Below, piece after piece: positions 11,866 to 52,673 of a DNA stretch of 64,000 bases. Source of the DNA: a virus; the IMG/VR virus record IMGVR_UViG_3300037510_000343, one strand, 5' to 3'. Positions within the stretch are counted from its first letter, which is position 1, and each line of letters opens with the position of its first letter. A model generated the notes under the pieces. It saw only the letters and a program-made list of their open reading frames with translations, was not told the DNA's origin and did no database searches. The position numbers and the translations under genes were made by a program.

Positions 11866-13848
11866 ATGGAGTTTAGACAATTCAAGCAGCAAGTACATCG
11901 CTCTTTCGATGCATTAGGGTTAGATCAATCACATTTGTACTACACAGATATTACCAAGGACGAATTGTGGAACGCCTACATTAATTCGTTCCCCCCAGCA
12001 ACCCGCCAAGAACATAACTGCAATGCTTGTCGGCAGTTCGTTAAAAACTATGGAAATATAGTATCAATTACCTCAGACTACGAGGTAAAAACATTCTGGG
12101 ATTTTGCTATTGACGACCCAGAATACCAACAAGTCGCAAATGCAATGGCTGAGTTGGTGTTATCAAAGCCAATCGTTGGAGTATTTATTCCAACACAGGC
12201 GAAGCTAGGTACGGATTACAACTTCGAGACCCCAACATTAAGGTGGGAACACCTGTTTTATCAGCTACCCGCTCGGTTTATCGGACGAGTAAGTCGAGAC
12301 GAGGTAGAGCTTAAGAAGTCTGAGTACCGGGACAATAAGAACGTATTCAAACGTTCATTGGAAGAATTAACACTAGCTTCTGTTGGAACAGTGCTGGAGC
12401 TTATTAACGATCCTGAAGTAAACCTTTATCGAGGTGTAGAATTTAAACCTCTACTAGAATCTTTTGAGCGACACTTAGTTAGTTTTGGGGAAACCCCAAC
12501 TGAATTGCGAGATAACTATTGTTGGTATTGGGCAACTAAATCTAATCCTGTTACTCGTATCCGTAATATGTCAATTGGCACTTTACTCATTGATTTAAGT
12601 AACGATGTCAACTTAGATGTGGCTATCCGCAAGTTTGAATCACTGATGGACTCAACTAAATATCGTCGCCCTAATAGTCCAGTTATCTCATCGAGGATGA
12701 TTCAGGATGCGAATAAGATAATCAGCGAGCTAGGACTAACCTCAGCATTGAAGCGACGGTTTGCTACTCTCGACGATGTTCCGGTTACTAATATGTTGTG
12801 GGTCAACCGCAACGGTAGTACCCCCGATGTTTTTGGGCAGCTTCAGAAAGATTTGGTCGTGAATCCTAAGTCACTAAAGGCTCAGGAAGTTTCATTAACT
12901 CAGTTTGTGACGAATGTGTTACCCGTGGCGGAAGGCATTGAAGTATTGGTTGAGAACCGCCATACTTCAAACCTGGTTAGTCTTTTCACTGAGACCGAAA
13001 CAAATAGCGGTTCTCTGTTCAAGTGGGATAATCCTTTTAGTTGGTGTTATCGTGAGGGCCTTGCGGACTCACTAAAGGAAAAAGTAAAGAGTGCTGGAGG
13101 GAAAGTTGAAGGCAAGTTAAGGATTAGTCTTGAGTGGTACAACACAGATGACCTTGACCTTCATGTACTCGAATCAAACGGGGCACATATCTACTTTGGT
13201 AACAAGAAAAGTTATTACACTTACGGGGAGCTTGATGTTGACCAGAATGTGAATGGAGAGACCCGTACTCCTGTAGAGAATGTTATCTATCCTTACAACA
13301 GCACCCTAATAGATGGGGAGTACAAGGTGGTAGTTAACAACTACACTCACCGGGAGAACAAAGATGTGGGGTTTCGTGTGGAGGTTGAATACGAGGGGGA
13401 AATCTATGAGTTCACTTACGATGTATCGCCGGCATACAAACGGAATACTGATGTTGTTAGTTTCACTGTAACTAAAGAACAAGTAAAATTAAACGCACAA
13501 TCTACTGGAAAAGTAAACAGTAAAAATGTGTGGGGAATTAACACTAACAAATTCTATCCCGTTAATGCAGTAATGTGGTCTCCAAATTACTGGAACAATA
13601 ATGGTGTAGGTAACAAGCATCTAATCCTCGGGATTAATGAGGCTAAAAACAATGAGCCGGTAAGAGCACTATTTAATGAGTTCTTAAGGGCGGATTTGAA
13701 TAAGCATAGTAAAGTGTTTGAGACTTTAGCCAGTAAGCTAGTAGTACCTTATTGTGATGATCAACTAAGCGGTTTGGGCTTTAGCACAACAATGAAAAAT
13801 GATTTTGTTGTACGAGCTAATAGTAGATTAATCAAAGTAGTTGTTTAA
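11866..13848 (+). CDS. large conserved-type phage protein with HNCNAC motif and a YfaP/DUF2135-like DLDLHV domain
   Basis: QEHNCNACRQFV, W.NTDDLDLHV, GELDVDQN, PVENV motifs. Confidence 0.65.
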   Translation: MEFRQFKQQVHRSFDALGLDQSHLYYTDITKDELWNAYINSFPPATRQEHNCNACRQFVKNYGNIVSITSDYEVKTFWDFAIDDPEYQQVANAMAELVLSKPIVGVFIPTQAKLGTDYNFETPTLRWEHLFYQLPARFIGRVSRDEVELKKSEYRDNKNVFKRSLEELTLASVGTVLELINDPEVNLYRGVEFKPLLESFERHLVSFGETPTELRDNYCWYWATKSNPVTRIRNMSIGTLLIDLSNDVNLDVAIRKFESLMDSTKYRRPNSPVISSRMIQDANKIISELGLTSALKRRFATLDDVPVTNMLWVNRNGSTPDVFGQLQKDLVVNPKSLKAQEVSLTQFVTNVLPVAEGIEVLVENRHTSNLVSLFTETETNSGSLFKWDNPFSWCYREGLADSLKEKVKSAGGKVEGKLRISLEWYNTDDLDLHVLESNGAHIYFGNKKSYYTYGELDVDQNVNGETRTPVENVIYPYNSTLIDGEYKVVVNNYTHRENKDVGFRVEVEYEGEIYEFTYDVSPAYKRNTDVVSFTVTKEQVKLNAQSTGKVNSKNVWGINTNKFYPVNAVMWSPNYWNNNGVGNKHLILGINEAKNNEPVRALFNEFLRADLNKHSKVFETLASKLVVPYCDDQLSGLGFSTTMKNDFVVRANSRLIKVVV

Positions 13849-13863
13849 CTAAGGAAAAACATC

Positions 13864-14244
13864 ATGGAATTATTTGCACAAGCCACTAAACAACGTTTAC
13901 GGTTTAAGTCCAACAAAGTAGCGGGTAACTTAAGCGTTGAAGATTTATGGCGGTTAGACTTAGATCCGCTAAATCATTTAGCAGTAGAGCTGGTTAAGGA
14001 ATTAGAAAGCCAACAAATTAGCTTTATAGATGATGTAAAAACGGACAAGGTTACGCAGCTAAAATTCGATGTAGTTAAATACATCATTGACTTCCGTAAG
14101 CAAGAGTTAGCTAATCGTCAGTTAGCGCAAGAAACGGCTACATACAAACAGCAATTGATGGAACTAAGGTATCAAAAAGAAAAAGAGCAAATGCAGCAAA
14201 TGTCTATTGCAGAAATTGACAAAAAGTTGGCTGAACTTGAGTAA
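13864..14244 (+). CDS. conserved-type phage coiled-coil protein (partner of the upstream gene)
   Basis: LF..AT..RLRF.S..G.LSVEDLW.L pattern; adjacent to 11866. Confidence 0.65.
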   Translation: MELFAQATKQRLRFKSNKVAGNLSVEDLWRLDLDPLNHLAVELVKELESQQISFIDDVKTDKVTQLKFDVVKYIIDFRKQELANRQLAQETATYKQQLMELRYQKEKEQMQQMSIAEIDKKLAELE

Positions 14245-14341: not shown

Positions 14342-15079
14342 ATGACTGAATTTAACTTGGATTTAGCAAAACAATTAAGTAGTTCTAAAGATGAATTCCC
14401 TGTCAATTTCGAGCAAGCTTATGTGTGGTTAGAATATTCGAGAAAAGATGTAGCTAAAAGAGCGTTTCTTAATGCGGGATTTATTGAGGGTGTAGATTTT
14501 GTCTCACTCCGCAGAAGTGTGGAGCGAGAAATTGGTGCAACTTCTGTGGAAGAAATTAAGCTAACTATTGACTGTTTTAAACAATGGGGTATGTTGTGTG
14601 GCAATGATAAAGGAAAACAAATTCGCCGCTACTTTATTGAGTGTGAAAAGATTGCTAAGCAAGTAGTTAGCATTCCGCAAGAAGTATTGCAGTTTATGCA
14701 GACGATGCAACTAGAGATGACTTTGTTACGAGAGCGAACAGAGAAACTAGATCAAGTACAAGCTGAAAACCTAGCACTAACCACTGAATTAACAGCGAGT
14801 AATACTCATCTTCAATTGTTAGATCAAGCGGGTTACGAGCACAAAGGGTGTCACAACATTATTAATCAAGCTGTTGTTGAACCAAAACAAAAATTGTACA
14901 CAGCGTATAAGTTCTTAGATGTAAATGGGTATGATACGGGTTTTGCTAACGTATTAGCGAGAAGAACCGCGGCTTTTTACCGTACTAGCAAAAAAGTAGA
15001 ACCCCACCGTGATGCAGATAATAATCTTCTGTTTGAAGAGAGTTATTTAGATGAAGTATACGAGGCACTAAAGCAATGA
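14342..15079 (+). CDS. antirepressor-like (AntA/KilA-type N-domain) DNA-binding protein
   Basis: FPVNFEQAYVWLEYSRKD.AK, GFIEGVDF, LTIDCFK, KGKQIRRYFIECEK. Confidence 0.75.
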   Translation: MTEFNLDLAKQLSSSKDEFPVNFEQAYVWLEYSRKDVAKRAFLNAGFIEGVDFVSLRRSVEREIGATSVEEIKLTIDCFKQWGMLCGNDKGKQIRRYFIECEKIAKQVVSIPQEVLQFMQTMQLEMTLLRERTEKLDQVQAENLALTTELTASNTHLQLLDQAGYEHKGCHNIINQAVVEPKQKLYTAYKFLDVNGYDTGFANVLARRTAAFYRTSKKVEPHRDADNNLLFEESYLDEVYEALKQ

Positions 15080-19529: not shown

Positions 19530-20438
19530 ATGACTAATCACAGTAACTCACTACCTAAACTAGGATTATGTTGTTTAACTAGTGATGGGGTTATTTCGTA
19601 TAAGACTATCACCAAGAAACGATTTGATAGTCTTAGTGATAAAGATAAATACACAGCCTTAGCTAAGATTTACAAAGCCAACATTGATATGTTTGTTAGT
19701 GCAATTAACTACTGTGCTACTAACGACATTAAAATGTATCGCGTTACCAGTCATTTGTTTCCGTTTTATGAAACAGAAATAGGGGTATCTATTTTAGCTA
19801 CGTTATCTAATGAACTCAAGACAATAGGTAATACCGCTAAAACTCTAGATATTAGAGTTGTTATGCATCCCGATCAGTGGGTTGTATTAAGCTCTGATTC
19901 GTCCGAAACAATAAGTAGGTCTGTTGACGAATTAATACATCACGCTATCATGTTCGACCTAATGGGTTTTAGTCGAACTCATTTTAATCTACTTAATGTG
20001 CATGGAGGTAAACGCGGTAATTCAACAACATTAATTAAGGTAATAAACGACTTACCGCACAGAATTAAAAGTAGATTAACACTGGAAAATGATGAACGCT
20101 GTTACTCAACTAAGGAGTTATTCAAAGTACACGAACTAACTAATGTGCCAATACTTTTTGATTTTCATCATTCATTAGTCAACAATAAACTGTGTAGTTA
20201 CAACCATCGAATTATTAAGCAGGAGTTTGAACTTGCAAAATCAACGTGGGGCAACTCTACGGATGTTACTACTCATATTAGTAATGGAACTACTGGTTTG
20301 CTTGACAGTCGTCATTCTGACTATATTACTAATTTCCCAGAGGTTATGTTAGACGCTCCTTGGGTAGAGGTCGAAGCACGAAGTAAAGAACTAGCATTAA
20401 GGCAATTAGAAAATGATTTAGAAAACTACTATGCTTAA
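19530..20438 (+). CDS. uvsE: UV DNA damage endonuclease
   Basis: LGLCC, YRVTS.LFP, MHPDQWVVLSS, NVHGG, RLTLENDE, FDFHH, HSDYI, VEARSKE. Confidence 0.92.
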   Translation: MTNHSNSLPKLGLCCLTSDGVISYKTITKKRFDSLSDKDKYTALAKIYKANIDMFVSAINYCATNDIKMYRVTSHLFPFYETEIGVSILATLSNELKTIGNTAKTLDIRVVMHPDQWVVLSSDSSETISRSVDELIHHAIMFDLMGFSRTHFNLLNVHGGKRGNSTTLIKVINDLPHRIKSRLTLENDERCYSTKELFKVHELTNVPILFDFHHSLVNNKLCSYNHRIIKQEFELAKSTWGNSTDVTTHISNGTTGLLDSRHSDYITNFPEVMLDAPWVEVEARSKELALRQLENDLENYYA

Positions 20439-21080
20439 AACTCACGAAGAATTATTCAAGGGCGAATACGGAACCCACAACGAAGTCGAACCTTTTGTGG
20501 GTTCAATTCAACGCACGGGCAATTGCACTTACTATGTGCAGTCTGACGAAACATTAGGCTTGTTTGTTATCCCTCACAACATGGATATAAACAAAAAGCA
20601 TTTACATTTACAAGTTCAGGGTAGTGCCACATTAGGTGGTGCTCGTGGTTGGACAGGCAAAGTTAACAATTTGCAGATAACTTACGTGTAACAACATGGA
20701 ACAACAAATAATTTATAACACCGCCGCTGGTATTTACGTACTGGTGGCGGTTTGGTATTGGGGAAGTGTATTCTCTCATGTCATCAAAGATCCCGCACTG
20801 AACACCGTCGATAAAGCAGGCAGTATATTCCTGGCTACTATTTTTGCCCCGTGCTGGCTAATAGTGGCGATATTGATGTTTGTATTAATCATCCTGGAAG
20901 ATAATTGGTACAACGATTGAGGTTTTCTTTCTTAGTTTAGGCAGGTAGTCATGGGTATAATAGTAGTCACCCCTAGTATCTCTGCGTTTGTGCAACAGTT
21001 AGCTAGATTCCACAAGATACCCCCACAGACCCTCATTGAAGCCCATGGAGGGTTAGTCCCATTATTAGAGGACTACGGTT

Positions 21081-21425
21081 ATGACGACGATTAATGTATC
21101 CCACAAAGGTCAAAATTTTCAACTTGTGATTGCACGTCGCCCAATCACGCTGGAGTTTTTGTATCGAGTATGCCAAGGTGCATACAACATCTCATTGTTT
21201 GAGTATGTCCGAAACAATCAGGGTGATGAGGATTCGCCGTACCACATCGAGGGATTGCGCGACTTTTGGCTAACAGCATTAAGCCCCGACCAAGACATTC
21301 TGGTGAGTCCTTCACCAGGGGAGTCCCTATTATTTTCGGACTTCTTAGTTCCCCTTATCGGCTACAAGCCAGAACTTTGGACACCTGAGCAAGTGTTCGA
21401 GTTGTTTCTTTCTCAGACCGCTTGA
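21081..21425 (+). CDS. hypothetical protein directly upstream of the Ubl operon
   Basis: 114-aa ORF with a GAGG RBS. Confidence 0.6.
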   Translation: MTTINVSHKGQNFQLVIARRPITLEFLYRVCQGAYNISLFEYVRNNQGDEDSPYHIEGLRDFWLTALSPDQDILVSPSPGESLLFSDFLVPLIGYKPELWTPEQVFELFLSQTA

Positions 21426-21457: not shown

Positions 21458-21811
21458 ATGTCTAATTTCTTTTCTCGCTTTGTTAACAACCTTGTCGGTA
21501 ATCAGTCTGCTGTCACTCCCGAAGTTGAGGCTCAACTTCCGGTTGAAACCGTGGGTGTGGATACCGTAGGTGTCACAGAAGACACGGTAACTCTCCAAGC
21601 CAACATTGGGCTTCGCACTATCGAGCTGAGTGTATCCCCCAATACGACTTATCGAGAAATCATTAAGTTAGCCCAGGCGCAAGTGCCCGGTATGAACGTT
21701 GCCGAGGTTACTGTTCTGAATATTGATAACAATCAAATTGTTCAGAACTTAGATCAGCCAGTCACCGCATCGCGTGTTTCGCTCGAAAGTACTGCTGGCA
21801 CTGCTGGCTAG
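21458..21811 (+). CDS. ubiquitin-like (beta-grasp) protein 1
   Basis: Start inferred at ATG 21458 from identity with paralogue 2 (MSNFFSRFVN). Beta-grasp-like pattern VTLQANIG..TIELSV.PNTTYREII...; ends STAGTAG; lies upstream of JAB/E2/E1. Confidence 0.7.
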   Translation: MSNFFSRFVNNLVGNQSAVTPEVEAQLPVETVGVDTVGVTEDTVTLQANIGLRTIELSVSPNTTYREIIKLAQAQVPGMNVAEVTVLNIDNNQIVQNLDQPVTASRVSLESTAGTAG

Positions 21812-21835
21812 AATCTCTGCATTGAGTTGTCTGGG

Positions 21836-21863
21836 GGAGGGTACCAATATCCTCCTTTTCTTT
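21836..21863 (+). terminator. intrinsic terminator after Ubl-1
   Basis: GGAGGGTA-CCAA-TATCCTCC followed by TTTTCTTT. Confidence 0.65.
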
Positions 21864-21891
21864 GTCCACTATTACCTAAAACACAAATATC

Positions 21892-22254
21892 ATGTCTAAC
21901 AACTTTTTCTCTCGCTTCGTTAACAAATTCTCCAACAACAACTCTGCTGAAACTTTAATTGGTGTGGAGTCTGTTACGGCAGAAGTTAGTTCTACTTCCT
22001 CAGAAACCTCGGACACTATTAACGTGAAGGTTCGCTATCGTCTTCGCAGTGAAGAGTTTTCCGTAAAAGCCGGGACAAAAATGTCGGAGCTTTTCCGTTT
22101 GGTCACAAAACGGTTTTCAATTGGTAATCTCGAAACCGTTAGTGTCCTCAACGAAGAGACTAACAATGTTCAAAGCTACTCAGAAGTTGCGGACGAAGAA
22201 ATCACCGAGGAACAGTCCATTTCTGTTGAGGATACATCTGGCACTGCTGGTTGA
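21892..22254 (+). CDS. ubiquitin-like (beta-grasp) protein 2
   Basis: INVKVRY...SEEFSVKAGTKMSELFRLV..RF pattern is SUMO/Ub-like; ends TSGTAG. Confidence 0.72.
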   Translation: MSNNFFSRFVNKFSNNNSAETLIGVESVTAEVSSTSSETSDTINVKVRYRLRSEEFSVKAGTKMSELFRLVTKRFSIGNLETVSVLNEETNNVQSYSEVADEEITEEQSISVEDTSGTAG

Positions 22255-22274
22255 TTAATGGTTGAGTAAATTCG

Positions 22275-22305
22275 GGTCTGGGAGGTTAATCTCTCAGACC
22301 TTTTT
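22275..22305 (+). terminator. intrinsic terminator after Ubl-2
   Basis: GGTCTGGGAG-GTTAAT-CTCTCAGACC followed by TTTTT. Confidence 0.75.
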
Positions 22306-22316
22306 ATTGTCCAAAT

Positions 22317-23237
22317 ATGGAGATAGGTATGAGATTAGTTAGTGGACAAAGAATTAAGATTGAAACAATTCCTCCTTATGGAAATTATATTTGCAAGGAT
22401 ATTACGCCAGAACCAAATGGGTTAGATATAAGTTGTTTAAACTCGCTAGAACCCAACCCACAACTGCCAAAGATTCCCCGAGCACTATTTCAGAAACTCG
22501 GAAAGTTTTTCTATGATTATGCCAGCAAAAACCTAGAAGTACATGCCAGGGTAGTATTTAATCCCACCAATAATGAGTTCCGGGTGTTTGTTCCTACACA
22601 AACTATTGCTGGTGCTAGTGTTGAGGAATTTGACTACACGCAAGCTGTAGATCTGGAAACGGGTGAGTCAGTATCCCTGCCACATCGAAATTACGTAACG
22701 TTATGGCAGTTTCATGTGCATCCATTTCATATGCCAGGGCCATCTGGCATTGATGATAATGGATTCCCTGGACGACCAGGAACAGGTGAATTAGATCGCC
22801 CTGGGGGATACGGGATTTTTAGTTGTTGGCGTAAACAAGACGGATATCAAAGCTACACTTTACGTTGCACAGTAGTTGTGTCTGATGGTTTTCAGTCTTG
22901 CAACAAACGACTGGCAATTCCTACAGATTCTGTAGTTGAAGGTGTTAGCGACGGGGAATGTATTCGGGTATACAACGCTAGGTATCACGAAAACGCTCAC
23001 TCTGTGATAAGTCAGTACGTGCCAAAACCAGTCACACAGTACTTAACTACTGCCCCACATCAACCTCACAATATTCAAGGAATCGACGCTCGATATTGGG
23101 ATTGGAATGTAAAATATTCGCCAATCACACTGGAGGGTATTATTTCGGACTATTCTCTACAAGAGATTTTGGCTGTACTGGCTGAAAAACACAGCAAAGC
23201 AGAAATTTTAGATCTACTTAACCAGGTAGAGGAATAA
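22317..23237 (+). CDS. JAB/JAMM metallopeptidase (Prok-JAB, PRTRC protein A-like)
   Basis: LPKIP..L, upstream Glu (LEVHARV), exact JAMM spacing H-x-H-x7-S-x2-D (HVHPFHMPGPSGIDD). Confidence 0.85.
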   Translation: MEIGMRLVSGQRIKIETIPPYGNYICKDITPEPNGLDISCLNSLEPNPQLPKIPRALFQKLGKFFYDYASKNLEVHARVVFNPTNNEFRVFVPTQTIAGASVEEFDYTQAVDLETGESVSLPHRNYVTLWQFHVHPFHMPGPSGIDDNGFPGRPGTGELDRPGGYGIFSCWRKQDGYQSYTLRCTVVVSDGFQSCNKRLAIPTDSVVEGVSDGECIRVYNARYHENAHSVISQYVPKPVTQYLTTAPHQPHNIQGIDARYWDWNVKYSPITLEGIISDYSLQEILAVLAEKHSKAEILDLLNQVEE

Positions 23238-23241
23238 TGGA

Positions 23242-24009
23242 ATGGTATTAGTCACAACTCCTCCTAATGTTACGGGGATCTTAGTATCCCCCGAAGAAGA
23301 TTACACTAGGCGAAAATTCATAATACTTTGTGAAAGTATTGATGTAAGGTTTCAGATCCAAGAGCGCTACGTATCCGATGCATTTTACTACGAACATTGC
23401 AGATCATGTGAGTACCGAATTCATGACAAGTGTATTGGCGGCAAGCAAGTTGTATTGAATAGGAGTTGTGCAATAGGTCTGGACAGGGAAACTCGTACGA
23501 TGTACGTGCCAAAAACTATTCCCCCACACGTTGTTCGTGTTAGTCCTTATGGAGAGTATTCACTCTTTTTTGTGGAAGAAGCTACAGATACTGATTTTGT
23601 TTTAGCTCCATTACTATTGGGCAATGTAACTACATACGGGTCATTGTGCGGTGGTGACATGCGTGTATCTCGCTACAACTTTGTAGCGTATTACGAAGCA
23701 ATTTGGTCTTTAGTTTGGACTGGGGATTATAGATACTTTCGTGGTGCAAGTCAGAAAACAATTACAGAAAATTGGTCGCCCGAATGGCAAAGAGAGAATT
23801 ACGACTCACCCCACAGTTACAATAACTTATTTGTAAAATCATCTGAACTTCTTGATGTGAACTCTTTAGAGTCTTGCATATTTCTTAGTCCGGGGAGTTA
23901 CGATATTTTAAATGCAGACACACTGTCCGCTAGACAGACCAGCACTTTATTAGACGACGGTTATATCGGATTAAATTCTCGTACGCTCGTTAAATCAAAT
24001 GGAACTTAA
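23242..24009 (+). CDS. putative prokaryotic E2-like conjugating enzyme (Prok-E2_D/PRTRC B-like)
   Basis: LAPLLLGNVTTYGSLCGG resembles the E2 P..NV...G..C catalytic signature; sits between JAB and E1; extra Cys cluster CRSC...C...C. Confidence 0.6.
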   Translation: MVLVTTPPNVTGILVSPEEDYTRRKFIILCESIDVRFQIQERYVSDAFYYEHCRSCEYRIHDKCIGGKQVVLNRSCAIGLDRETRTMYVPKTIPPHVVRVSPYGEYSLFFVEEATDTDFVLAPLLLGNVTTYGSLCGGDMRVSRYNFVAYYEAIWSLVWTGDYRYFRGASQKTITENWSPEWQRENYDSPHSYNNLFVKSSELLDVNSLESCIFLSPGSYDILNADTLSARQTSTLLDDGYIGLNSRTLVKSNGT

Positions 24010-24877
24010 AAACACTACTGTCTACATTGTTGGTGTTGGTGGCACCGGCGGCAGGTTGTGCGAACTACTTGCCGATTACATCTCTTTCTCTAACAACAAA
24101 CCTCGACGGTTAGTATTGGTAGATGATGACAAAGTAGAAGAGCGCAATGCCGAAAGACAGTGCTTTGATCGCTTAGATGCTGGCAAATACAAAGTGGAAG
24201 TAATGAAAAACCGGCTTATAGCAAGGTCGGGATTTGGCAATATTGAAGCTCTCCCAGTAAGATTTACCCCCGAGACATTGCCTCATGACTTGGGCATCAT
24301 GAGCAATCAAGATGCCTCTGTGGCCATACTAATTTGTGTTGATTCTGCACGAGCACGCAACGCTATCTGGTCTGAGATGATCGGGCGATTTGACCCACAA
24401 AAAAGACAATACATAGAGTCCGAAATAAAATATAAGGGGAATTTTATGATTGTCGATGGTGGGAATACAACCTACACCGGGCAAGTAACAACATGCCTTC
24501 GTATGAAATGCGATGAGTTTGAATGTATTCTGGGTCAAGATCCCAGAGTTTTATTCGAGAATGTGCGAAACGCTGATCCTACTGTGATGGGATGTGCAGC
24601 GGCTCCAGAAGAACAAGTGCAGCAGACTGTAATGGCAAATATGCAAGTCGCCACCTGTATGTTCAATGAATTTATTGCGGCAATAAATACGCATTCATTT
24701 TACCCATTAGTTAAGTTTGATTTGGAACAACGGGTGATGTTTCCAGTTGGCACCAAATGCGACTTAAAAGAAGAGTATTTGAGATACCTCAAAGAAAAAG
24801 CTGAGCAACTCGAAGCTCAATCGCACCCCATTGAATCTGCCCTTCCAGAAGTAAACGTTAGTCAAGAGCAAGAATAA
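23999..24877 (+). CDS. ThiF/E1 family Ubl-activating enzyme
   Basis: IVGVGGTGG, LVDDDKVEERNAERQ, GKYKVE, ICVDSARAR, VDGGN, candidate catalytic Cys in VMGCA, Q..MAN..VA. Confidence 0.9.
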   Translation: MELKNTTVYIVGVGGTGGRLCELLADYISFSNNKPRRLVLVDDDKVEERNAERQCFDRLDAGKYKVEVMKNRLIARSGFGNIEALPVRFTPETLPHDLGIMSNQDASVAILICVDSARARNAIWSEMIGRFDPQKRQYIESEIKYKGNFMIVDGGNTTYTGQVTTCLRMKCDEFECILGQDPRVLFENVRNADPTVMGCAAAPEEQVQQTVMANMQVATCMFNEFIAAINTHSFYPLVKFDLEQRVMFPVGTKCDLKEEYLRYLKEKAEQLEAQSHPIESALPEVNVSQEQE

Positions 24878-25545
24878 TGAACCAACTACTATACGACCGC
24901 TTAATTGCACAAGGCTTAAATGAAGAGACGGCTAGTGCTTTAGCTGCCGAATTCGTGAATACAAAACCAGTGTCGCAAAAGTCCAAACCTACTCTCGGTG
25001 CTTGGGCAGATAAATACGCGGACACTAATATCCGGCTGAGACTTCAAGCCGTGATGACCTTAATCTCTACATTGGGAATTACCGTTTCGACTGAGATGGT
25101 CAATGAATTAAAGCAAGTGGAAAAAGCCCCGCTAGAAACATTGCGACGATTAAGTCAGCTAATGGATAGTAAATGGATTCCACAACGAGATGCGGGAGGT
25201 AAGCTTTCTAAGTTAGTTGATGAATTGCTAGGCACAAAATCCAGCCCCGAACCTACCACAAACAACCCCGAAGTAGATGAGTTGCTAAATCTAGTTAGTA
25301 GTGTGACAAGTGTGGAGAAAGTCAATGATAATACTTTTGCTGTCGAGATAGTTCCTCAGACTGAAGAGACTGTTGATACGGAAGAGATGTCCGAAATAAA
25401 TAGTGATGGTGATAAGGAAGACGGGATAGTAGAAATTCTCACAGAAGAAGACGAAGAGATTATTATGCACATGGTAGGTATGCCAGTACCCCCAAAACCG
25501 CTTAGCACATCTAGTGAAGAAATAGATATTACCAAGTTCATGTAA
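24877..25545 (+). CDS. hypothetical protein with an acidic disordered C-terminus (coupled to E1)
   Basis: Start overlaps the E1 stop (TAATG); Glu/Asp-rich tail. Confidence 0.65.
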   Translation: MNQLLYDRLIAQGLNEETASALAAEFVNTKPVSQKSKPTLGAWADKYADTNIRLRLQAVMTLISTLGITVSTEMVNELKQVEKAPLETLRRLSQLMDSKWIPQRDAGGKLSKLVDELLGTKSSPEPTTNNPEVDELLNLVSSVTSVEKVNDNTFAVEIVPQTEETVDTEEMSEINSDGDKEDGIVEILTEEDEEIIMHMVGMPVPPKPLSTSSEEIDITKFM

Positions 25546-25593
25546 CTGTGTGGGGCTAATTATTATACAGATAGTTAGCCCTACTTAAAATCT

Positions 25594-27027
25594 ATGGACA
25601 AAGATCAGTTAACAGATTTTCTACTTAATGCAATAAACGATTATTCACTTGCAGAGATATTACGAACAACTAATGGGGTATTATCTGGAGATTATTTAGG
25701 GGGTTTAATTTTTAATGAGTTATATCAATTAAATATACAGCTCGCTAAACCGACTATTTACAAATTAAATAACGGCAACTACCGCAAAGTGTTTGTTAGT
25801 GATAATTACACAATAATAGAGATACAGCAAGATACTCCGTTTAATTACACTAATTTTAATAGTATTTTAGCTGAGTTCGATAGTGACACTAATAATTTAA
25901 AGGTAACTATTGATAACTCTTTCATAGAATTAATTCAAACAAAACAACTAGAGATAACAAGGTTTAATCCGCTAGGAAAAGCATTAGTAGAACTAATTAG
26001 ATTATCTAACACTTACAAAGGTGTGCTATACGCAGACATCAATAAAGCCATAGCTATGCTTAATGACTTAACCAGTGTAGTTAATTTCAAAAACTTGGCT
26101 ATATCCTACAAAGATGTGGAAACAGTTAAGTCAATAAATTACTTAGATATAGAAGAAATAATTCCAGTAGACTATCCAGGTACAACAATACCCGTAATAA
26201 AACTGCCCAAGAGTAACTTACTATCTCCTTACTTACTTAACGCAATTAAAGGTTTAGGGGGTGTAAATTGCTTTAATAGATATTTGATGGTAGTAAAGTA
26301 TCTGTATGGTAGTGGGGTTAAAAAGTCTACTAGAGAAACAAGATTAATAGTTCTGGATTATCCAGAACTAGTCTCTTTTGCGTTACTTACACCTAATTAT
26401 CTAGACAATTTACCCAACAATTGGAAAGCCAAATTACCAGCATTAAACAAGTTTTTAGGTGAACACAATTTATTGCCTATTTTTTCAGGGAAAACATTAC
26501 CGGAACAAATTAGGTTGTTAGATGAACTTAGACAGTTAATTAAACAATATGGTCTGTGGATAATAGGCTTATTGGAACAACACCTACATCATTACCAATA
26601 CAACAAACAAGAGTTCATCAAACTAATTGAGTTCAAGAAGCTAGAAAATTCTAAGTGGTTAGTTAAGCCACTTAAATTACCAGAACTACCTTTCGGTTTA
26701 AAGTCTACTTGGAAGGTAGTCGAGCTACATACTCGCCAGCAATTAATCCAAGAAGGCGAATATCAACGACATTGTGTGGGAGGTTACACAGTGTCCGAAA
26801 CACATAGAATATGGTCACTAAGGAAAGACAATCTTAGATACACAGTAGAGGTAAGTTATTACAATTCTACCTGGCGAGTAAATCAAGCCCGTGGTAGACA
26901 CAATTCCCGCATAGAAAGTTATGACGAGGTAACGCAACGAGACCTAAATATACTTGTTACTTGGTTGATTAGTTCAATTCCACGTCCTGCTGATAGTATA
27001 CTCACCATTCGTAATCCATTTAATTGA
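25594..27027 (+). CDS. PcfJ-like domain protein
   Basis: C-terminal EL.T..QL..EGEYQRHCVGGY...IWSLR...TVEV...QARGRHN. Confidence 0.75.
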   Translation: MDKDQLTDFLLNAINDYSLAEILRTTNGVLSGDYLGGLIFNELYQLNIQLAKPTIYKLNNGNYRKVFVSDNYTIIEIQQDTPFNYTNFNSILAEFDSDTNNLKVTIDNSFIELIQTKQLEITRFNPLGKALVELIRLSNTYKGVLYADINKAIAMLNDLTSVVNFKNLAISYKDVETVKSINYLDIEEIIPVDYPGTTIPVIKLPKSNLLSPYLLNAIKGLGGVNCFNRYLMVVKYLYGSGVKKSTRETRLIVLDYPELVSFALLTPNYLDNLPNNWKAKLPALNKFLGEHNLLPIFSGKTLPEQIRLLDELRQLIKQYGLWIIGLLEQHLHHYQYNKQEFIKLIEFKKLENSKWLVKPLKLPELPFGLKSTWKVVELHTRQQLIQEGEYQRHCVGGYTVSETHRIWSLRKDNLRYTVEVSYYNSTWRVNQARGRHNSRIESYDEVTQRDLNILVTWLISSIPRPADSILTIRNPFN

Positions 27028-31100: not shown

Positions 31101-31520
31101 ATGGAAACAAGAATAGCTGACTTGGTTACATTAAAGAATGTAAAAGTTAACGATGTTATTTATTGGAAGGAATTATCTACGCAACATCTAGTAAGAATAG
31201 ACAGAATTGAATTACCTTCTAAAACAAGACTTATTCCGGTTATTGAGTATGATAAACATCCCAGAGCATTTAGCCAATCAATAGTACGTATAATACACAA
31301 AAGTCTCATTGATCATTCTGTCTTTAGATTTAATCAAACAAATGTGTCAATTAGGTGGACAAATAAACCTTACTTAAAAGGTGACGAATACGTACTGACA
31401 TCGAATAATATATACAACTTAGCCACATCAAAAGAAGTCTTTTATTTACTAGGTCTTGTAGTTCCAGTTATAGACATATTAGAGCCAACAACTCCCGATA
31501 ACTTAAGCTTTGTATTCTGA
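31101..31520 (+). CDS. hypothetical protein ending TPDNLSFVF
   Basis: ORF in the replication operon. Confidence 0.6.
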   Translation: METRIADLVTLKNVKVNDVIYWKELSTQHLVRIDRIELPSKTRLIPVIEYDKHPRAFSQSIVRIIHKSLIDHSVFRFNQTNVSIRWTNKPYLKGDEYVLTSNNIYNLATSKEVFYLLGLVVPVIDILEPTTPDNLSFVF

Positions 31521-31522
31521 AC

Positions 31523-31912
31523 ATGAAAGACTATGAGTTAATTGAAGCAAGGGCTATTGACGTAGATGACACGATATTGTGGACGTATTTTAAGGGGATA
31601 TCTCCAGTTGTTGTTGAAGAGATTATTGAAGAAGAGAATAGGGTTGATATTTGGTACGGTAAAGGTAAGTGGGCGAACTGGCAACAATTTGAGGGTTCCC
31701 AGTTAGTATTACGTATAAATAGTCCTACAATTACAGCGCAAAAAGTGCTTAAATCCAATCTCAGGGGAAATGAGATGGTTTATGCCTTGAGTCAAATAGT
31801 CAACCTATCTCACTACCCCAACTTTGATAATTTATTTTTACCCGAGTATGTTTGGGTATTGCTAGACACAACAAAACTCTTCTCTCCAGAAAATCTTAGT
31901 TTCGTGTTCTAA
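31523..31912 (+). CDS. hypothetical protein ending SPENLSFVF
   Basis: ORF in the replication operon. Confidence 0.6.
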   Translation: MKDYELIEARAIDVDDTILWTYFKGISPVVVEEIIEEENRVDIWYGKGKWANWQQFEGSQLVLRINSPTITAQKVLKSNLRGNEMVYALSQIVNLSHYPNFDNLFLPEYVWVLLDTTKLFSPENLSFVF

Positions 31913-31953: not shown

Positions 31954-32769
31954 ATGTCAGATATTACTCGATACCTCGGAGAGCCTATATACCGCATAGG
32001 CAACACCGTTAAGGCTTACACATGCCCATGTTGCAACAAACCCTCGCTAAAAGTTAATATAGCATCTCCAACTAAGCCTTATGCATGTTGGAGTGGGGGA
32101 TGCAGTAAAGAAGACATCAGAAAATCGTTGCGACTAACCGTTCAGAAGTCCGAAATAATAAGGCCTGCGAGTTATAATATACAGCCTATTAAGCTAGAAA
32201 CAATTGAGCCACTATTTGTTTCGGACTATATTCCACCAATAACAGTTAGGCATAACGTTACTCACGACAATAAATTGGCTAATGTTACGACATACAGATA
32301 CTCTGATACTCATCAAGTCGAGCGAATAGACTTCCATGATGGCAGTAAGAAGAAATTTCTACCTTCATATTTTAAGGACAATAAACGTATCTACGGGGCG
32401 GATTATAACTGCCCCTTATTTAATGAGTATCTATTAGTCGGTAAGAAAACAGTGTACGTAGTTGAGGGAGAAAAGTGTGCTGTGGAATTCACTAGAGAGC
32501 TGGGTATGTTAGCAGTTAGTCCGCCAGGTTTTGGTTGGACTGAAAAATTTTTAAGACCCAAGCTACAATCACTATCTAGTAAAGTAAGTGGTTTAGTTAT
32601 TGTGCCAGACAAAGACAAAGCAGGTTTATTGAAAGCCCAAACACTTAGAACAATAGCTTGGTCAGTTGGTTTACCTTGTAGAATCATTAATCTTCCCAAT
32701 GCAGCACAAGGAGAAGATATTGTGGACTTACTTGCAAGAAATGTAGACGTATTACCTTATTTAAAATAA
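31954..32769 (+). CDS. DNA primase (Zn finger + TOPRIM)
   Basis: CPCC...CWSGGC, VYVVEGEKC, IVPDKDKAG, GEDIVD. Confidence 0.85.
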   Translation: MSDITRYLGEPIYRIGNTVKAYTCPCCNKPSLKVNIASPTKPYACWSGGCSKEDIRKSLRLTVQKSEIIRPASYNIQPIKLETIEPLFVSDYIPPITVRHNVTHDNKLANVTTYRYSDTHQVERIDFHDGSKKKFLPSYFKDNKRIYGADYNCPLFNEYLLVGKKTVYVVEGEKCAVEFTRELGMLAVSPPGFGWTEKFLRPKLQSLSSKVSGLVIVPDKDKAGLLKAQTLRTIAWSVGLPCRIINLPNAAQGEDIVDLLARNVDVLPYLK

Positions 32770-34487
32770 TGATTAGTAATTTATTGCTGATGCTCTCCAA
32801 TGAGCCAGATTCTGCACGACGTTCAGCACTAATGCATGATTGGCTAGAAGATAATCCTAATACTTATTCTCAAGAAGAATTAGAGGAATTATTTTTTCAG
32901 TATTTAGTTAATGTAACCCGTGAGAAATTAGTAATTGTTAGAAACACAACTAATATATTCAAAGCTGTTTCTTTAAAGACTGATTTAGTTAACTGGCTCA
33001 AACTATTTGTTTCGGACAAGCAAGACATTCAGAAACTGATTGAGATTTACTCAACTGAGATTAAGGAAAATGAAGTATACAACTTAAGACAATTACGCTC
33101 TATTGCTTTAGAACATAAAGATAATTACTTGGTTCAGGGCTTATTTAGGAAAGGAGTATTATTTTTAGTTGCGGGTGCTCCCAAGACTGGCAAAAGTTTG
33201 TTGGCCACTAATCTCGGGGTGTGCTTAATACAAGGAACTCCTTTTCTTAATCGAGCAACATTGAAAAGTAGAGTAGTTTTTATTCAAAACGAAGAACCAC
33301 TCCCCGGCACCTATCACCGCATTTACAATAATGGTCTTCAGTTTTTAGAAGCTAGTCAGCCCGAACTATTTGAAGAATTACTAGATAGTCATGATTTAAT
33401 TGTTGCAAAGCATTTAGACTTAAGTGTTGATAAGGCTAGTATTGTTAAAGTCATTGAAGACCACGAAGCTGATGTGCTGATAGTTGATAGTCTAGGTGCT
33501 AGCATTCGCCGTAGTGGACTAACAGAATACAGTACAGAATTGATCCCACTTCTTTATGAGTGGCAAGATTATGCACATACTCACAACGTAAATATTTTCA
33601 TTTTGCATCACACCACCAAGATGAATGCAGGGCGTCAGTCTTCAGATGAAAGCAAAGCAGTACCTACACAGACTCGGCTTATTGGAGCTACAGCAGGGCA
33701 CAACGGTATCATGAGGGCAAATGATGGGGCTGTGTTTTTGCAGCCAGGAAAGACTCCTGGAACAGTTGTTCTGTATACAATTCCGAGAGATGGTGTTCCT
33801 GAAGAATTGTTATTAGAACATGAAGAGGACGAGGCATCGTTCTGGAATTTCAAAGTGAAGAAAGAAAATACTCTGACTTCTGAGAATATTCAATTACAGA
33901 ACAGTGTGTTGCGATTGTTATTGGAGCAATACAATTTATGGCAGGAAAGTGACGATGAAAAAGTGTATGGGTACACACTAACCGAGTTGATGGATATTCT
34001 AGGTGTGCCTCGACCTGATTTAGTGAAACGTTTGAATCAAATGACAGATACACAAGGTATTAGTCGAAGAACAGAAAAAGGTAGATTCATCTACCACATT
34101 CCTGCTAATGGGGAGAGTTGGTTACTTGCTTATCTTGAAATAGAAGAAGCTGAGCAAGCTAAGGCACAACAACAACTAGAAATTGATGCCCGAATGGCAA
34201 ACGCTGTCCGAAACACAAGGACTCGTGAAGAGTTTTTGCAATTACTTCAAGGATGGTCTGATGAAGAAAAAAAGCGAGTCTTTAATTTAATTGATCCACA
34301 GACTAGGATTGACAAGATGCTGTTGGTAAACCCGCCACGATATAGTGTCGGAGCGAGCGTGCGTGTCGAGGGAATTGAAGTCCAGGTGTCAGCCGTGACC
34401 CTGAAGGACGGTAAGCATATGTACACAATTCAAGATAGTCAGGGGAACCAGATTCCCGACTATCTCGAAGAACAGTTGGAGGGATAA
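32769..34487 (+). CDS. RecA-family (AAA_25/RepA-like) replicative helicase
   Basis: AGAPKTGKS, FIQNEE, LIVDSL, ILHHTTK; translationally coupled to primase and DnaE. Confidence 0.85.
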   Translation: MISNLLLMLSNEPDSARRSALMHDWLEDNPNTYSQEELEELFFQYLVNVTREKLVIVRNTTNIFKAVSLKTDLVNWLKLFVSDKQDIQKLIEIYSTEIKENEVYNLRQLRSIALEHKDNYLVQGLFRKGVLFLVAGAPKTGKSLLATNLGVCLIQGTPFLNRATLKSRVVFIQNEEPLPGTYHRIYNNGLQFLEASQPELFEELLDSHDLIVAKHLDLSVDKASIVKVIEDHEADVLIVDSLGASIRRSGLTEYSTELIPLLYEWQDYAHTHNVNIFILHHTTKMNAGRQSSDESKAVPTQTRLIGATAGHNGIMRANDGAVFLQPGKTPGTVVLYTIPRDGVPEELLLEHEEDEASFWNFKVKKENTLTSENIQLQNSVLRLLLEQYNLWQESDDEKVYGYTLTELMDILGVPRPDLVKRLNQMTDTQGISRRTEKGRFIYHIPANGESWLLAYLEIEEAEQAKAQQQLEIDARMANAVRNTRTREEFLQLLQGWSDEEKKRVFNLIDPQTRIDKMLLVNPPRYSVGASVRVEGIEVQVSAVTLKDGKHMYTIQDSQGNQIPDYLEEQLEG

Positions 34488-37849: not shown

Positions 37850-38593
37850 ATGTTGCAAGTAATTGAAAAAGATAGTGTATTAGTAGTTGATTCTAGATTA
37901 ATTGCAGAAGAATTGGGAATAGAGCACCGTAGTTTTAAAGATACTGTACAGGGAAACATTACAGATTTAGAGTTGCATTTTGGGGAGTTGCGGCGTGAAA
38001 CCGCATCGTCAAAAGCAAATGGTGGTGGGGGTTTTGGTGAAACATACTACCTGCTCAACGAAGAACAAGCCACTTATCTAATGACTTTATCTCGTAACAC
38101 CGATCAAGTTAAGAAAGCCAAACTTAGTTTAGTCAAAGCTTTTAGTGCTGCTAAGTCTGCATTAAAAAATATAGATAATAATGCATTAATTTCATCACTA
38201 AATAACTTAGCTAATTTAGTTACACAACAGCAGCAACAACTCAATACACTAACAGAGCGTACTCAACAACTAGATATAGTTACAGAAGAAAATAAGCAAT
38301 TAACCACTACAATAGCTTCTATTAATACAGCCGGATTAGCACATCAAGGTTGTTATAACATCATTCAATCAGAATTAACTAAAGAAGATACTACACTAAT
38401 AACCGCGTATGACTTTTTACTTGAAGTAAATCAACCAACTGAATACGCTCAGTTATTAGCACGTAGAGCAGCTAGTCTATTTCGTTGCAGTCGTAAAGCT
38501 GAGCCATTTAAGAACAAACAAAATCAGCTACTATTTGAACGCAAATATCTCCGCGAAGCACTAACATCTATTGCAGACTTACTAGTGGATTAA
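37850..38593 (+). CDS. Rha family regulatory protein
   Basis: VVDSRLIAEELGIEH, LLNEEQATYLMTLSRNT..V..AK..LVKAF. Confidence 0.85.
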   Translation: MLQVIEKDSVLVVDSRLIAEELGIEHRSFKDTVQGNITDLELHFGELRRETASSKANGGGGFGETYYLLNEEQATYLMTLSRNTDQVKKAKLSLVKAFSAAKSALKNIDNNALISSLNNLANLVTQQQQQLNTLTERTQQLDIVTEENKQLTTTIASINTAGLAHQGCYNIIQSELTKEDTTLITAYDFLLEVNQPTEYAQLLARRAASLFRCSRKAEPFKNKQNQLLFERKYLREALTSIADLLVD

Positions 38594-38795: not shown

Positions 38796-39785
38796 ATGCG
38801 TAAACTAGCTACGATCAGACAAATAAGTGAGATTAAGCAGATTCCCAATGCAGACTTACTGGAGTTAGCCATTATAGATGGATGGCAAGCTGTAATTAAA
38901 AAAGGAGAATTTAAGGTCGGAGATTTGGTGGTTTATTGTGAGATTGATTCCTTTTTACCGATAATCCCTGAATATGAGTTCCTAAGAAAAAACTGCTACC
39001 GTAAACTATCGGATGGGAGTGAGGGATTTTTAATTAAGACTGTTAAATTACGGGGACAACTTTCGCAAGGTTTAGTTCTACCGTTAGTGAATAAACATTG
39101 GGAATTAAACCAAGACGTAACTGAGGCTCTGGGTATTACACTCTATGATCAATTGGCAGGCAGGGAAAAAATTGGTACTGATATTAGTGGTAAATTTCCT
39201 TACTTTATTCCTAAAACAGATGAAGAAAGAATACAGAATTTATCTGCTAAATTCGAGCAACTTAAACAACGAGGTTATACCGTTACTGAGAAGCTAGATG
39301 GCACTAGCTTTACCTGTTACAAGTGGAATGAGAAGTTTGGGGTTTGTTCGCGTAATTGGGAAATAGAAGAAGCAGAGAACTCAATGTATTGGAAAATAGC
39401 TAAGCAGTATAACTTAGCACAGACACTCCCAGAGGGATTAGCTATTCAGGGGGAGGTAATTGGCCCCGGCATTCAAGGCAATAAATATGAACTAAAAGAT
39501 ACAGACCTTTATGTATTTAACGTTTACGACATTAAACAGCAACAGTATTTAACTCAACAAAACGCACAATATACGGCAACTAAATTAGGTATAAAATTTG
39601 TACCAGTAATTGAGCAATCTACTTTGTTGCCAAATACAGTTAATGAGGTTCTACAGTTAGCGATAGGTAAAAGTTGTCTTAATAAACACGCAGAAAGAGA
39701 AGGATTAGTTTTTGTTAGTGATATAGATCCACGAATATCATTTAAGGTCATTTCTAATTCCTTTCTTCTAAAGGATAAAAATTAG
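38796..39785 (+). CDS. RNA ligase (Rnl2/DRB0094 family)
   Basis: MRKLATIRQI, YCEIDS, LRGQLSQGL, FIPKTDEERIQN, TEKLDGTS, QGEVIGPGIQGN, REGLV, SFKVISN. Confidence 0.92.
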   Translation: MRKLATIRQISEIKQIPNADLLELAIIDGWQAVIKKGEFKVGDLVVYCEIDSFLPIIPEYEFLRKNCYRKLSDGSEGFLIKTVKLRGQLSQGLVLPLVNKHWELNQDVTEALGITLYDQLAGREKIGTDISGKFPYFIPKTDEERIQNLSAKFEQLKQRGYTVTEKLDGTSFTCYKWNEKFGVCSRNWEIEEAENSMYWKIAKQYNLAQTLPEGLAIQGEVIGPGIQGNKYELKDTDLYVFNVYDIKQQQYLTQQNAQYTATKLGIKFVPVIEQSTLLPNTVNEVLQLAIGKSCLNKHAEREGLVFVSDIDPRISFKVISNSFLLKDKN

Positions 39786-39857: not shown

Positions 39858-40259
39858 ATGTCTAAATTAGATGAATTAATTAATCAAGCTAAGGCTAATC
39901 AATTAACAGAAGAACAACTACGTATTGCTAAAAATAAACGTATTTACAGAGAATTATTTAATAGTATATTTGGGGGCGAACTATTTGAAGCATTAATCGA
40001 GGCGGGATTTAAGTACATTGAAGATAAGCATTGTTTAACTTCCCTAAATTATTACAAGTGTACTGTAACAATTAGTTTGCAGAGTACGTTATTAAAAGAT
40101 ACTAACAACATATCCACTAAGGCTACTTTATTTGTTAAACCTAATGACCATGCTATCCTTGCTAGATCAAAAGTAATTTCAGTTGGGGAAAATAGTCGTC
40201 TTAATACCGATACTTTGCTATTAGCATTATCTACCATGATTAGCAGTTTTAAGCCATGA
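39858..40259 (+). CDS. hypothetical protein
   Basis: ORF coupled to the next gene. Confidence 0.55.
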   Translation: MSKLDELINQAKANQLTEEQLRIAKNKRIYRELFNSIFGGELFEALIEAGFKYIEDKHCLTSLNYYKCTVTISLQSTLLKDTNNISTKATLFVKPNDHAILARSKVISVGENSRLNTDTLLLALSTMISSFKP

Positions 40260-40639
40260 GAAAAATAGAACAAGAAATGCTTGAGGCTATTGCAGCCAAG
40301 AAAGCATGGCGAAAGGATAATACTGAAGTATCTGTTTTGTATCTCAATAACGCAATAAGAGTTTCGTTGCATGGTAACCTTATTGCAATAATATCGCCAA
40401 ATAAAAACACACTAACACTGTATGACTGTGGCTACAGAACAGCAACAACTAAGTCTCGTCTTAATGCATTACTAAGTCATTACAATAAAGGCTTTATTTG
40501 GCAGGTTCAAGGAACATGGTTCTATCGTGATTATTTTGAAGGTATTACTCAGTTATGGAATAGTGGCTTAGTAGTACCTTTGTATACTGCCGGAGTTAAT
40601 ATGGCTAAAACCCCCGACAATTTGGAGTTTGTTTTCTAA
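40256..40639 (+). CDS. conserved-type phage hypothetical protein ending TPDNLEFVF
   Basis: MRKIEQEM...LHGNLIA...TTKSRLNALL, a pattern familiar from cyanophage hypotheticals. Confidence 0.6.
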   Translation: MRKIEQEMLEAIAAKKAWRKDNTEVSVLYLNNAIRVSLHGNLIAIISPNKNTLTLYDCGYRTATTKSRLNALLSHYNKGFIWQVQGTWFYRDYFEGITQLWNSGLVVPLYTAGVNMAKTPDNLEFVF

Positions 40640-52289: not shown

Positions 52290-52673
52290 TTGTGCGTTTG
52301 TTGTAAACAAAGAAACATTATTAGAGGTATCAAAATGAATCAAGAACAGTTTCTACAGTTCCACCGCGAAACAGTAGATAAGATGCACGAGATTTGTCGT
52401 GCTAAAAACTCCGATTATTGTGGAGGTAAGAGTAACAATAATGCCTTTGCTAATTTCGAGCTAATTGAAGTATTTGGTGTAACTACTACAGAGGTGGGTT
52501 TATTTACTCGGTTATTAGACAAAATGTCCCGCATTGCTAGTTATCTTAAGCAAGGTAGTTTACAAGTAGTAAATGAATCAGTAATTGATACGTTATTAGA
52601 CGCTGCTAATTACTGTATTTTGTTAGCCGCTTATTTGCAATCTAAGAAAGAGTCCGAAAATAATAGAGGATGA
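52290..52673 (+). CDS. DUF1599 / nucleotide-modification-associated all-alpha NTP-PPase-like protein (likely start ATG 52335)
   Basis: KNSDY.G...AFANF, RLLDKMSRI, ESVIDTLLDAANYCIL. Confidence 0.7.
   Translation: MCVCCKQRNIIRGIKMNQEQFLQFHRETVDKMHEICRAKNSDYCGGKSNNNAFANFELIEVFGVTTTEVGLFTRLLDKMSRIASYLKQGSLQVVNESVIDTLLDAANYCILLAAYLQSKKESENNRG

Follow-up and report, generated by a model that had tools for sequence, protein, structure and literature searches.

A divergent phage relative of type 6d/PRTRC operons with a predicted ubiquitin-style conjugation pathway

As described by Iyer, Burroughs and Aravind in 2006 (PMC1779556), operons of type 6d encode a helical protein together with a ubiquitin-like protein (Ubl) with a terminal Gly, a JAB peptidase with JAB-N, an E1, and an E2-like protein in which a His lies downstream. 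Type 6d corresponds to the PRTRC cassette, represented by the NCBIfam model TIGR03736 (ThiF), proteins A, B, C, E, and F, and ParB, and by the Pfam families Prok-E2_D, Prok-JAB, Prok_Ub, and alpha-hel2. Here, we describe a related gene run in a 64,000-nucleotide stretch of viral DNA (IMG/VR virus record IMGVR_UViG_3300037510_000343; hereafter, the window), in which five consecutive + strand genes encode two Ubl tags, a predicted JAB, an E2-like protein, and an E1-like enzyme. A sequence-only reading had proposed that these genes form a protein-tagging cascade owned by the phage. All five open reading frames (ORFs) were located where it had placed them, and the Ubl, E1, and E2 components and the phage origin were supported, whereas the JAB was recognized by motif only. 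The cassette branches off divergently from the type 6d/PRTRC operon reported in 2006, and prophages with PRTRC cassettes have been noted in print before; the four-Cys insert of the E2-like protein, the Phe-rich helix of the tags, and the strain variation focused on the E2-like gene are new features. The cassette is real and coherent, and it is probably functional.

The tested bacterial Ubl conjugation systems that we found (CBASS, Bil, and Bub) are encoded by the host, and their known or proposed role is antiphage. The Bil system (BilABCD) resembles the window cassette in its Ubl, E2, JAB, and E1, in its Cys chemistry, and in lacking an E3, and a Bil Ubl is among the fold matches of the second tag; the Bil E2 has been proposed to recognize targets without an E3 (10.1101/2023.09.26.559546). 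Bil differs in being host-encoded, with a multidomain E1 (IAD-AAD-CYS) that contains a four-Cys structural Zn site and a precursor Ubl that is trimmed, whereas the E1 here is single-domain and the tags are mature. Bub (type 6e) and type II CBASS Cap2/Cap3 share bacterial E1/E2/JAB conjugation chemistry with the window cassette. Bub forms Tyr/Ser oxyesters, has an E1 and E2 without catalytic Cys, and includes a DUF6527 protease; in contrast, C199 of the E1 and C136 of the E2-like protein are present here, and DUF6527 had no match in the window ORFs scanned. CBASS uses an E1-E2 fusion and has its cyclase as the tag, and both CBASS and Bub are host-encoded.

In the literature searched, no phage-encoded Ubl-E1-E2-JAB cascade was described or tested, although the Aravind and Corbett surveys may include phage members in their supplementary tables; a jumbo-phage review did not mention JAB or Ubl, and two crAss-phage papers contained none of the terms sought. 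The prophage cassettes of Burkholderia gladioli (AB2) and Phocaeicola vulgatus are phage-borne and of the same line, but they are annotated as canonical PRTRC, unlike the divergent form here. The AB2 cassette was read as a partitioning cassette (PMC13366799), and the word ubiquitin is absent from the main texts of PMC13366799 and 10.64898/2026.10.01.756045.

By its gene content, the window belongs to the genome of a tailed phage, in agreement with the phage origin assigned previously. It encodes a terminase large subunit (PHROG E 1.5e-87), DnaE, a primase/helicase, ribonucleotide reductase, thymidylate synthase, DHFR, RuvC, RNA ligase, a ClpP-like protease, and antirepressor-like genes; no tRNA was found in the window. 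We compared the 64-kb window with two related IMG/VR phage contigs (L001 and L002; 111 and 127 kb), whose terminases are 85% and 70% identical to that of the window. Among cultured phages, neither the terminase nor DnaE had a relative above 40% identity. Both contigs keep the same gene run, consisting of a gene for a 114-residue protein, two tags, JAB, E2, E1, and a gene for a protein of approximately 200 residues, and tag matches number exactly two in each. The unit is therefore larger than five genes, with the 114-residue protein gene before it and the 222-residue protein gene after it positionally conserved. L002 contains four unrelated genes between the tags and the JAB gene, and two E2 genes. 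A fourth copy of the cassette is probably present on a 6851-base Logan contig, since a relative of E1, one of E2, and one of JAB are each listed with a contig of this length.

Tag 1 (21458-21811, +; 117 residues from ATG) and tag 2 (21892-22254, +; 120 residues) are 39% identical to each other, and both end in GTAG immediately before the stop, as had been noticed from the sequence. They are the only two of 101 + strand ORFs of at least 60 residues with this end, for which the expectation was 7.9e-6 per ORF. The GTAG end is found in all six tags of the three phages, which are 29-74% identical (74% for the L002 pair), whereas tags of the ThiS/MoaD relay have a GG end in place of TAG. Each window tag is closest to the L001 tag in the same position (46% and 49%, versus 32-39% across positions), indicating that the two tag types are older than the split of the window phage and L001/L002.

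The AlphaFold2 model of tag 2 showed a beta-beta-alpha-beta-beta-beta order with predicted local distance difference test (pLDDT) values of 82-88 over residues 41-110. At E<=0.001, Foldseek gave 25 matches; SUMO and a ubiquilin UBL headed the list, which also contained the bacterial Ubl 8tyx_A (TM score by target, 0.74; root mean square deviation, 2.6). Tag 2 is thus modeled as a beta-grasp protein, and tag 1 is assigned this fold by homology. Sequence profiles of the tags had no match in the PDB, and there was no Prok_Ub Pfam match. Approximately 40 residues precede the tag domain. They comprise an invariant NFFxxF motif modeled as a short helix (residues 6-12 in tag 2) and a low-confidence linker (11-39), followed by the beta-grasp domain (42-114); tag 1 likewise has a predicted Phe-rich helix and a linker. 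Three or four Phe residues occur in the first 14 residues of all six tags; among the 99 other window ORFs, 4 show this feature. For four tags, 0-7 of 99 controls equaled the hydrophobic moment of the helix, compared with 17 of 99 in the case of the two L002 tags.

Terminator-like hairpins are located 3' of all six tag genes and are the two longest + strand matches in each locus. The hairpin and T-run after tag 1 (21833-21858, +) gave a z value of -0.27 (L001 counterpart, -2.62; L002, -1.74), and those after tag 2 (22274-22301, +) gave -3.45 (L001, -2.94; L002, -4.25). Relative to shuffles, four of the six are in the range of -2.6 to -4.3 and are more stable than almost every shuffle, one is borderline at -1.7, and that of window tag 1 is at -0.3. 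The presence of a hairpin after each tag gene suggests that tag mRNA is in excess over enzyme mRNA, as for a consumed substrate.

The E2-like protein (23242-24009, +; 255 residues) contains the NV..GSLC motif on which the sequence-only reading had relied, at N128-C136, with C136 as the candidate catalytic Cys. It had no Pfam match, and a single-sequence search recovered no protein but itself. A profile of four sequences recovered 40 proteins among 1.84 billion representatives; one of them (P0030, a 1102-residue carboxylesterase) was removed before alignment as a likely false match. Among the 39 aligned sequences, C136 was conserved in all and N128 in 38. A CxxC-x7-C-x11-C insert (C53, C56, C64, and C76) was present in 37-39 of them, a frequency that is biased upward because the profile was seeded with the insert; the insert probably binds zinc. 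Three of the 40 profile matches passed the gathering score of Prok-E2_D (PF14460), and four more matched below it.

Profile-profile comparison by hhalign with four plasmid PRTRC-B-type proteins gave a probability of 94.7 (E 5.7e-8), with Cys aligned on Cys and Asp162 aligned to the PRTRC-B family His, which places the protein in the Prok-E2_D/PRTRC-B line. Its Atlas neighbors were mostly viral clusters (score 0.94) in which 14-22% of members carry Prok-E2_D, a placement that serves as a lead only because the recognition value is low. Structural prediction gave a model with mean pLDDT 86. A VIA search with this model showed E2 enzymes by title in 28 of the first 30 rows (Z 3.6-5.3), and the remaining two, FTS and FANCL, are E2-like folds. 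Z reached 5.3, with a root mean square deviation of approximately 3.5 over approximately 113 residues. The model thus aligns with UBC folds, and as the Z values are modest, it is the consistency of the row list that carries weight. Between phages, the E2-like proteins are 45, 27, and 29% identical, versus 55-65% for JAB and E1; E2 is the most divergent enzyme of the cassette and is duplicated in L002 as two distant paralogs. A tblastn search of cultured phages with two distant E2 relatives found none.

The E1-like enzyme (23999-24877, +; 292 residues) matched Pfam ThiF with E 2.3e-18, consistent with its earlier assignment as a ThiF/E1 with a nucleotide-binding loop and a candidate Cys, and it has no rhodanese domain. 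The best NCBIfam model was TIGR03736 PRTRC_ThiF (E 1.5e-13; 50.6 bits against a cut-off of 144.75). The BilD model matched over part of the protein only (E 0.0011), and the E1 was closer to PRTRC ThiF than to the BilD or CBASS E1-E2 models. We aligned ten E1s, comprising four phage E1s, four plasmid type 6d/PRTRC E1s, and two other phage E1s. The Gly loop (GxGGxG), D42, N50, Q54, K65, D115, R120, D153, C199, and Q209 were invariant in all ten; in the ThiF/MoeB fold, R120 would be the adenylation Arg and C199 the catalytic Cys. Judged by sequence, the E1 demonstrably belongs to the type 6d/PRTRC line. A single-sequence search found three relatives, and tblastn against cultured phages gave one weak match. 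Predicted complexes of E1 and E2 scored 0.39, 0.01, and 0.00 in separate runs and were counted neither for nor against an interaction.

The 22317 product (22317-23237, +; 306 residues) is likely a JAB/JAMM metallopeptidase on the basis of its motif and synteny. The HxHx7SxxD motif with the exact spacing reported earlier occurs once in the 101 + strand ORFs (0.024 expected), beginning at H133; its assignment to JAB depends on motif order, and the statistical comparisons failed. E74, H133, H135, S143, and D146 are invariant in the three phage proteins. In a joint alignment, the phage JAB was in register with three plasmid PRTRC-A JABs at the catalytic residues, the Glu strand, PxQ, and DD..E..G. 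No JAB model of Pfam, NCBIfam, or PADLOC matched the gene, including Prok-JAB and DUF2016, and its sequence profile had no match in the PDB. Atlas neighbors were unnamed viral clusters and DUF4329; a single-sequence search found three relatives, and tblastn against cultured phages found none. Pattern scans derived from the JAB alignment recovered no relative from metagenome contigs and GTDB genomes, although these scans require exact short words and thus do not prove absence. As all six tags end in Gly, leaving nothing to trim, a role for the JAB as a deconjugase is a fair inference.

Taken as a set, the genes resemble type 6d/PRTRC in having a stand-alone Ubl with a terminal Gly, a predicted JAB, an E2-like protein with a conserved Cys, a rhodanese-free E1, and an extra conserved gene. 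Unlike PRTRC, they reside in a phage of the 110-130 kb class, and no ParB family member was found among the 70 window ORFs scanned, the window being only part of the genome. The gene order is Ubl-Ubl-JAB-E2-E1-X, whereas that on a PRTRC plasmid is E-C-F-B-A-ThiF; moreover, there are two tags with an N-terminal extension, and the E2 has a four-Cys insert and Asp in place of His. Apart from the E1, no cassette gene of the window matched a PRTRC model at E<=1, including those for proteins A, B, C, and F. Since the family His and ParB were lacking and the scores were low, we filed the cassette as a divergent variant, not a member, of type 6d/PRTRC. On two cyanobacterial plasmids (L023, 1112-5699; L024, 1-5723), a Gp157-family gene is followed, a few genes later, by a type 6d cassette (E2, JAB, and ThiF) that has no PRTRC names.

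To the strain-level comparison, contigs of two other soil runs contributed sequence at a depth of 2.5-12.5 and with partial cover. Four large genes (JAB, E2, E1, and the 222-residue protein gene) contained at least 48 places that differed from the window. The numbers of non-synonymous and synonymous changed codons were 13 and 4 in E2, 1 and 10 in JAB, 3 and 13 in E1, and 1 and 1 in the 222-residue protein gene; 13 of 17 changed codons in E2 were protein-altering, versus 4 of 27 in JAB and E1 combined (Fisher p 7.6e-5). The rough ratios of non-synonymous to synonymous polymorphism (pN/pS) were 0.92 for E2, 0.03 for JAB, and 0.06 for E1. Because depth was low, cover partial, and changes within a contig non-independent, these values represent a contrast between genes and not positive selection. 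The conserved Cys, N128, G138, and D162 of E2 were unhit, whereas five changes fell at residues 130-143 and seven at 195-238, and two E2 alleles across the active-site stretch coexisted within one run. Synonymous sites were saturated relative to L001, so that this comparison yielded no usable ratio of substitution rates (dN/dS). The variability of E2 is in line with its divergence between phages and its duplication in L002. It also agrees with a preprint on a gut (Phocaeicola vulgatus) prophage, where mutations recur at two hotspots, PRTRC protein B being one of them (10.64898/2026.10.01.756045).

On balance, these data favor a phage-owned, type 6d/PRTRC-like cassette that likely operates as a ubiquitin-style conjugation cascade, with E2 predicted to choose the targets, most likely host proteins; we regard this reading as somewhat more probable than all others together. 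There are two tag genes, with free Gly ends and terminator-like hairpins, and tags would be made in excess over the enzymes. E1 would adenylate the terminal Gly of the tag with ATP (R120), form a thioester on C199, and hand the tag to C136 of E2. As no E3 is recognizable, E2 may itself attach the tag to a target lysine, with specificity set by the four-Cys, probably zinc-binding, insert and the variable surface. It is likely that E2 picks the proteins to be tagged, and these are probably host proteins. The 222-residue protein may be an adaptor, and the JAB would remove tags. More speculatively, the Phe-rich helix on its flexible linker could be the working end of the tag, sending the tagged protein to a protease or to the membrane, or causing clumping. 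A more specific and tentative version, which we hold to be possible but doubtful, is a phage attack on the host in which an E2 with a zinc insert, shaped by an arms race, picks host defense or regulatory proteins without an E3 and attaches either of two distinct tags, whose Phe-rich N-terminal helix routes the victim to a protease or the membrane. Such an attack would be the viral counterpart of Bil and CBASS.

Tagging of host proteins by phages in this manner would be a new class of counter-defense. With its mature tags and single-domain enzymes, the compact phage version lends itself easily to reconstitution, and its natural E2 alleles would show directly whether specificity is set by E2 alone.

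Several observations weigh against a conjugation cascade aimed at host proteins. For the JAB, hhalign against reference JABs gave a probability of 0.08, and a four-sequence JAB hidden Markov model did not recover or rank the phage protein. For the E2, the position of the supposedly absolutely conserved His was Asp in 36 of 39 sequences and His in three. The VIA Z of 5.3 is within the range that the tool calls common, and the overlay of C136 has no residue assignment there. Foldseek with the E2 model found no match at E<=0.001 in the PDB or BFVD, the best E2 row in the PDB being UbcH8 (E 0.95). An arms race and relaxed selection account equally well for the pN/pS near 0.9 of E2. Regarding the tags, the amphipathic moment is high in four of six only, and shuffles are as stable as the hairpin that follows tag 1 of the window. 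In addition, the literature searched contained no experimental test of any type 6d/PRTRC system.

The most probable alternative is a real cascade that tags the phage's own proteins, such as the 222-residue protein or replication proteins, as a housekeeping switch common with plasmid PRTRC. The cassette is present in all three phages of the group seen, is set among replication and early-type genes, and has a conserved accessory gene coupled to E1, while the plasmid versions adjoin ParB or Gp157-like genes. A self-directed target, however, leaves unexplained why most amino-acid changes fall in E2 alone and why L002 has two distant E2 paralogs, and we assign this explanation a rather low probability.

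A different acceptor is also conceivable, namely a lipid, a nucleic acid, or a Ser/Thr/Tyr hydroxyl in place of a protein lysine. The Phe-rich helix is of the membrane-binding type in four of six tags, the E2 His is replaced by Asp, and the Bub systems show bacterial pathways able to use other chemistry. Nevertheless, E1 and E2 have both retained their Cys, a feature shared with Bil, which conjugates to lysine, and we judge such an acceptor quite improbable. We are equally skeptical of the proposal that the kit jams Ubl-type host defense, with the tags as decoys for Bil/CBASS E1/E2 or the JAB stripping host tags off phage proteins. A jammer needs no cognate E1 or E2, yet both are kept with intact catalytic residues and E1 is under strong purifying selection; furthermore, the E1 is nearer to PRTRC ThiF than to BilD or CBASS E1-E2.

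Although the E1 has a ThiF/MoeB fold and the conserved Cys of the 23242 product could bind metal or carry sulfur, ThiS/MoaD-like tags made into thiocarboxylates by E1 for nucleotide, tRNA, or cofactor modification are unlikely, at a very small probability, because no family of sulfur donors or acceptor enzymes (among them cysteine desulfurase, rhodanese, ThiG, and MoaE) was matched by the 70 window ORFs scanned against Pfam, as the sequence-only reading had found for the adjacent genes with respect to sulfur transfer, thiamine, and Moco, because the partner of E1 has an E2 fold and motif, and because sulfur carriers are catalytic and need neither excess nor a duplicate.

Other phages contain gene runs that recall this cassette. 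The cultured crAss-like Kolpuevirus 'frurule' (OQ198718; L027, 1370-5618), which belongs to an unrelated phage group, has a Prok-JAB gene next to a ThiF gene, annotated as 'metalloprotease domain' and 'thiamine biosynthesis protein', and shares the catalytic Cys motif of the cassette E1. Should phages tag host proteins as proposed above, some phage genes labeled 'thiamine biosynthesis' would be mis-annotated. The two genes before the 'frurule' JAB/ThiF pair look Ubl-like and E2-like by eye, with no Pfam support; as a cultured phage, 'frurule' could serve as a model for such phage cassettes. We also read 10 of 18 distant E1 loci. A reduced run of a KKG-ending small protein, ThiF, a protein of 170-290 residues, and a protein of approximately 205 residues was observed in small phage or prophage contigs (L005, L006, L009, L014, L016, L017, and L019-L022). 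The approximately 205-residue protein of L009 matched Prok-E2_D (E 3.9e-6), and no JAB was seen next to the reduced runs.

The flanks of the cassette begin with a 47-residue ORF of unassigned function (20951-21094, +), which had no Pfam match; a similar reading precedes the 114-residue protein gene in L001 and L002, as judged by eye. The conserved 114-residue protein (21081-21425, +), also unassigned, has orthologs just 5' of the first tag in L001 (53%) and L002 (44%) and had no family match in library scans; it was considered as a third tag and rejected, as its profile did not match the tags. The 222-residue protein (24877-25545, +), a candidate adaptor or substrate whose start overlaps the E1 stop, has orthologs directly 3' of E1 in L001 (44%) and L002 (35%). 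Its N-terminal ~140 residues are conserved, followed by an acidic tail with 23 acidic versus 4 basic residues at positions 135-222. It had no family match, including alpha-hel2, and is a positional candidate for the PRTRC F helical protein. The gene run ends at a hairpin without a T-run (25553-25581, +), which ranked 7 of 109 in folding energy after stops, and hairpins follow the ortholog in L001 and L002 as well. Promoter scans gave nothing clearly better than shuffles.

A 477-residue PcfJ-like protein (25594-27027) is encoded directly 3' of the cassette in the window and L001; we left it out of the cassette because it is approximately 20 kb distant in L002. A UvsE UV endonuclease gene (19530-20438) is close to the cassette in the window and in L001. 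A ClpP-like protease (55544-56089) is present in all three phages, but the L001 and L002 copies are just 29-32% identical to that of the window, so that a link to degradation is unsupported beyond co-occurrence.

Four soil metagenome runs, one of which may be the source, contained at least half of the sampled words of the cassette, and no RNA data set was listed as containing it. A Kyano_Gp96 match in the window and the presence of two cyanobacterial plasmids among five E1 matches hint at a cyanobacterial host; counter to this hint, the one GTDB relative found for UvsE was in a Tepidisphaeraceae bin (43%).

Elsewhere in the window, a class II-type ribonucleotide reductase of 1058 residues (44128-47304) contains an internal LAGLIDADG domain, probably an intein, and is followed by a cobalamin adenosyltransferase-like gene (47852-48547). 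Four antirepressor/Rha-like genes are dispersed (14342-15079, 37850-38593, 50692-51405, and 52670-53431), and the inserted genes of the L002 cassette include one that resembles them. There are three AAA_25 helicase-like genes (17-760, 32769-34487, and 60419-61312), the first of which is followed by a T5orf172/MUG113 gene; the third has a similar C-terminus. A PHROG 1735/2018 pair, RNA ligase, CYTH, circularly permuted YpsA SLOG, and Macro domain (11866-14244, 38796-39785, 49807-50523, 59208-59984, and 61606-62076) form a set typical of phage counter-defense and nucleotide handling. Finally, a DNLxFVF-like C-terminal motif is common to three small proteins (31101-31912 and 40256-40639).

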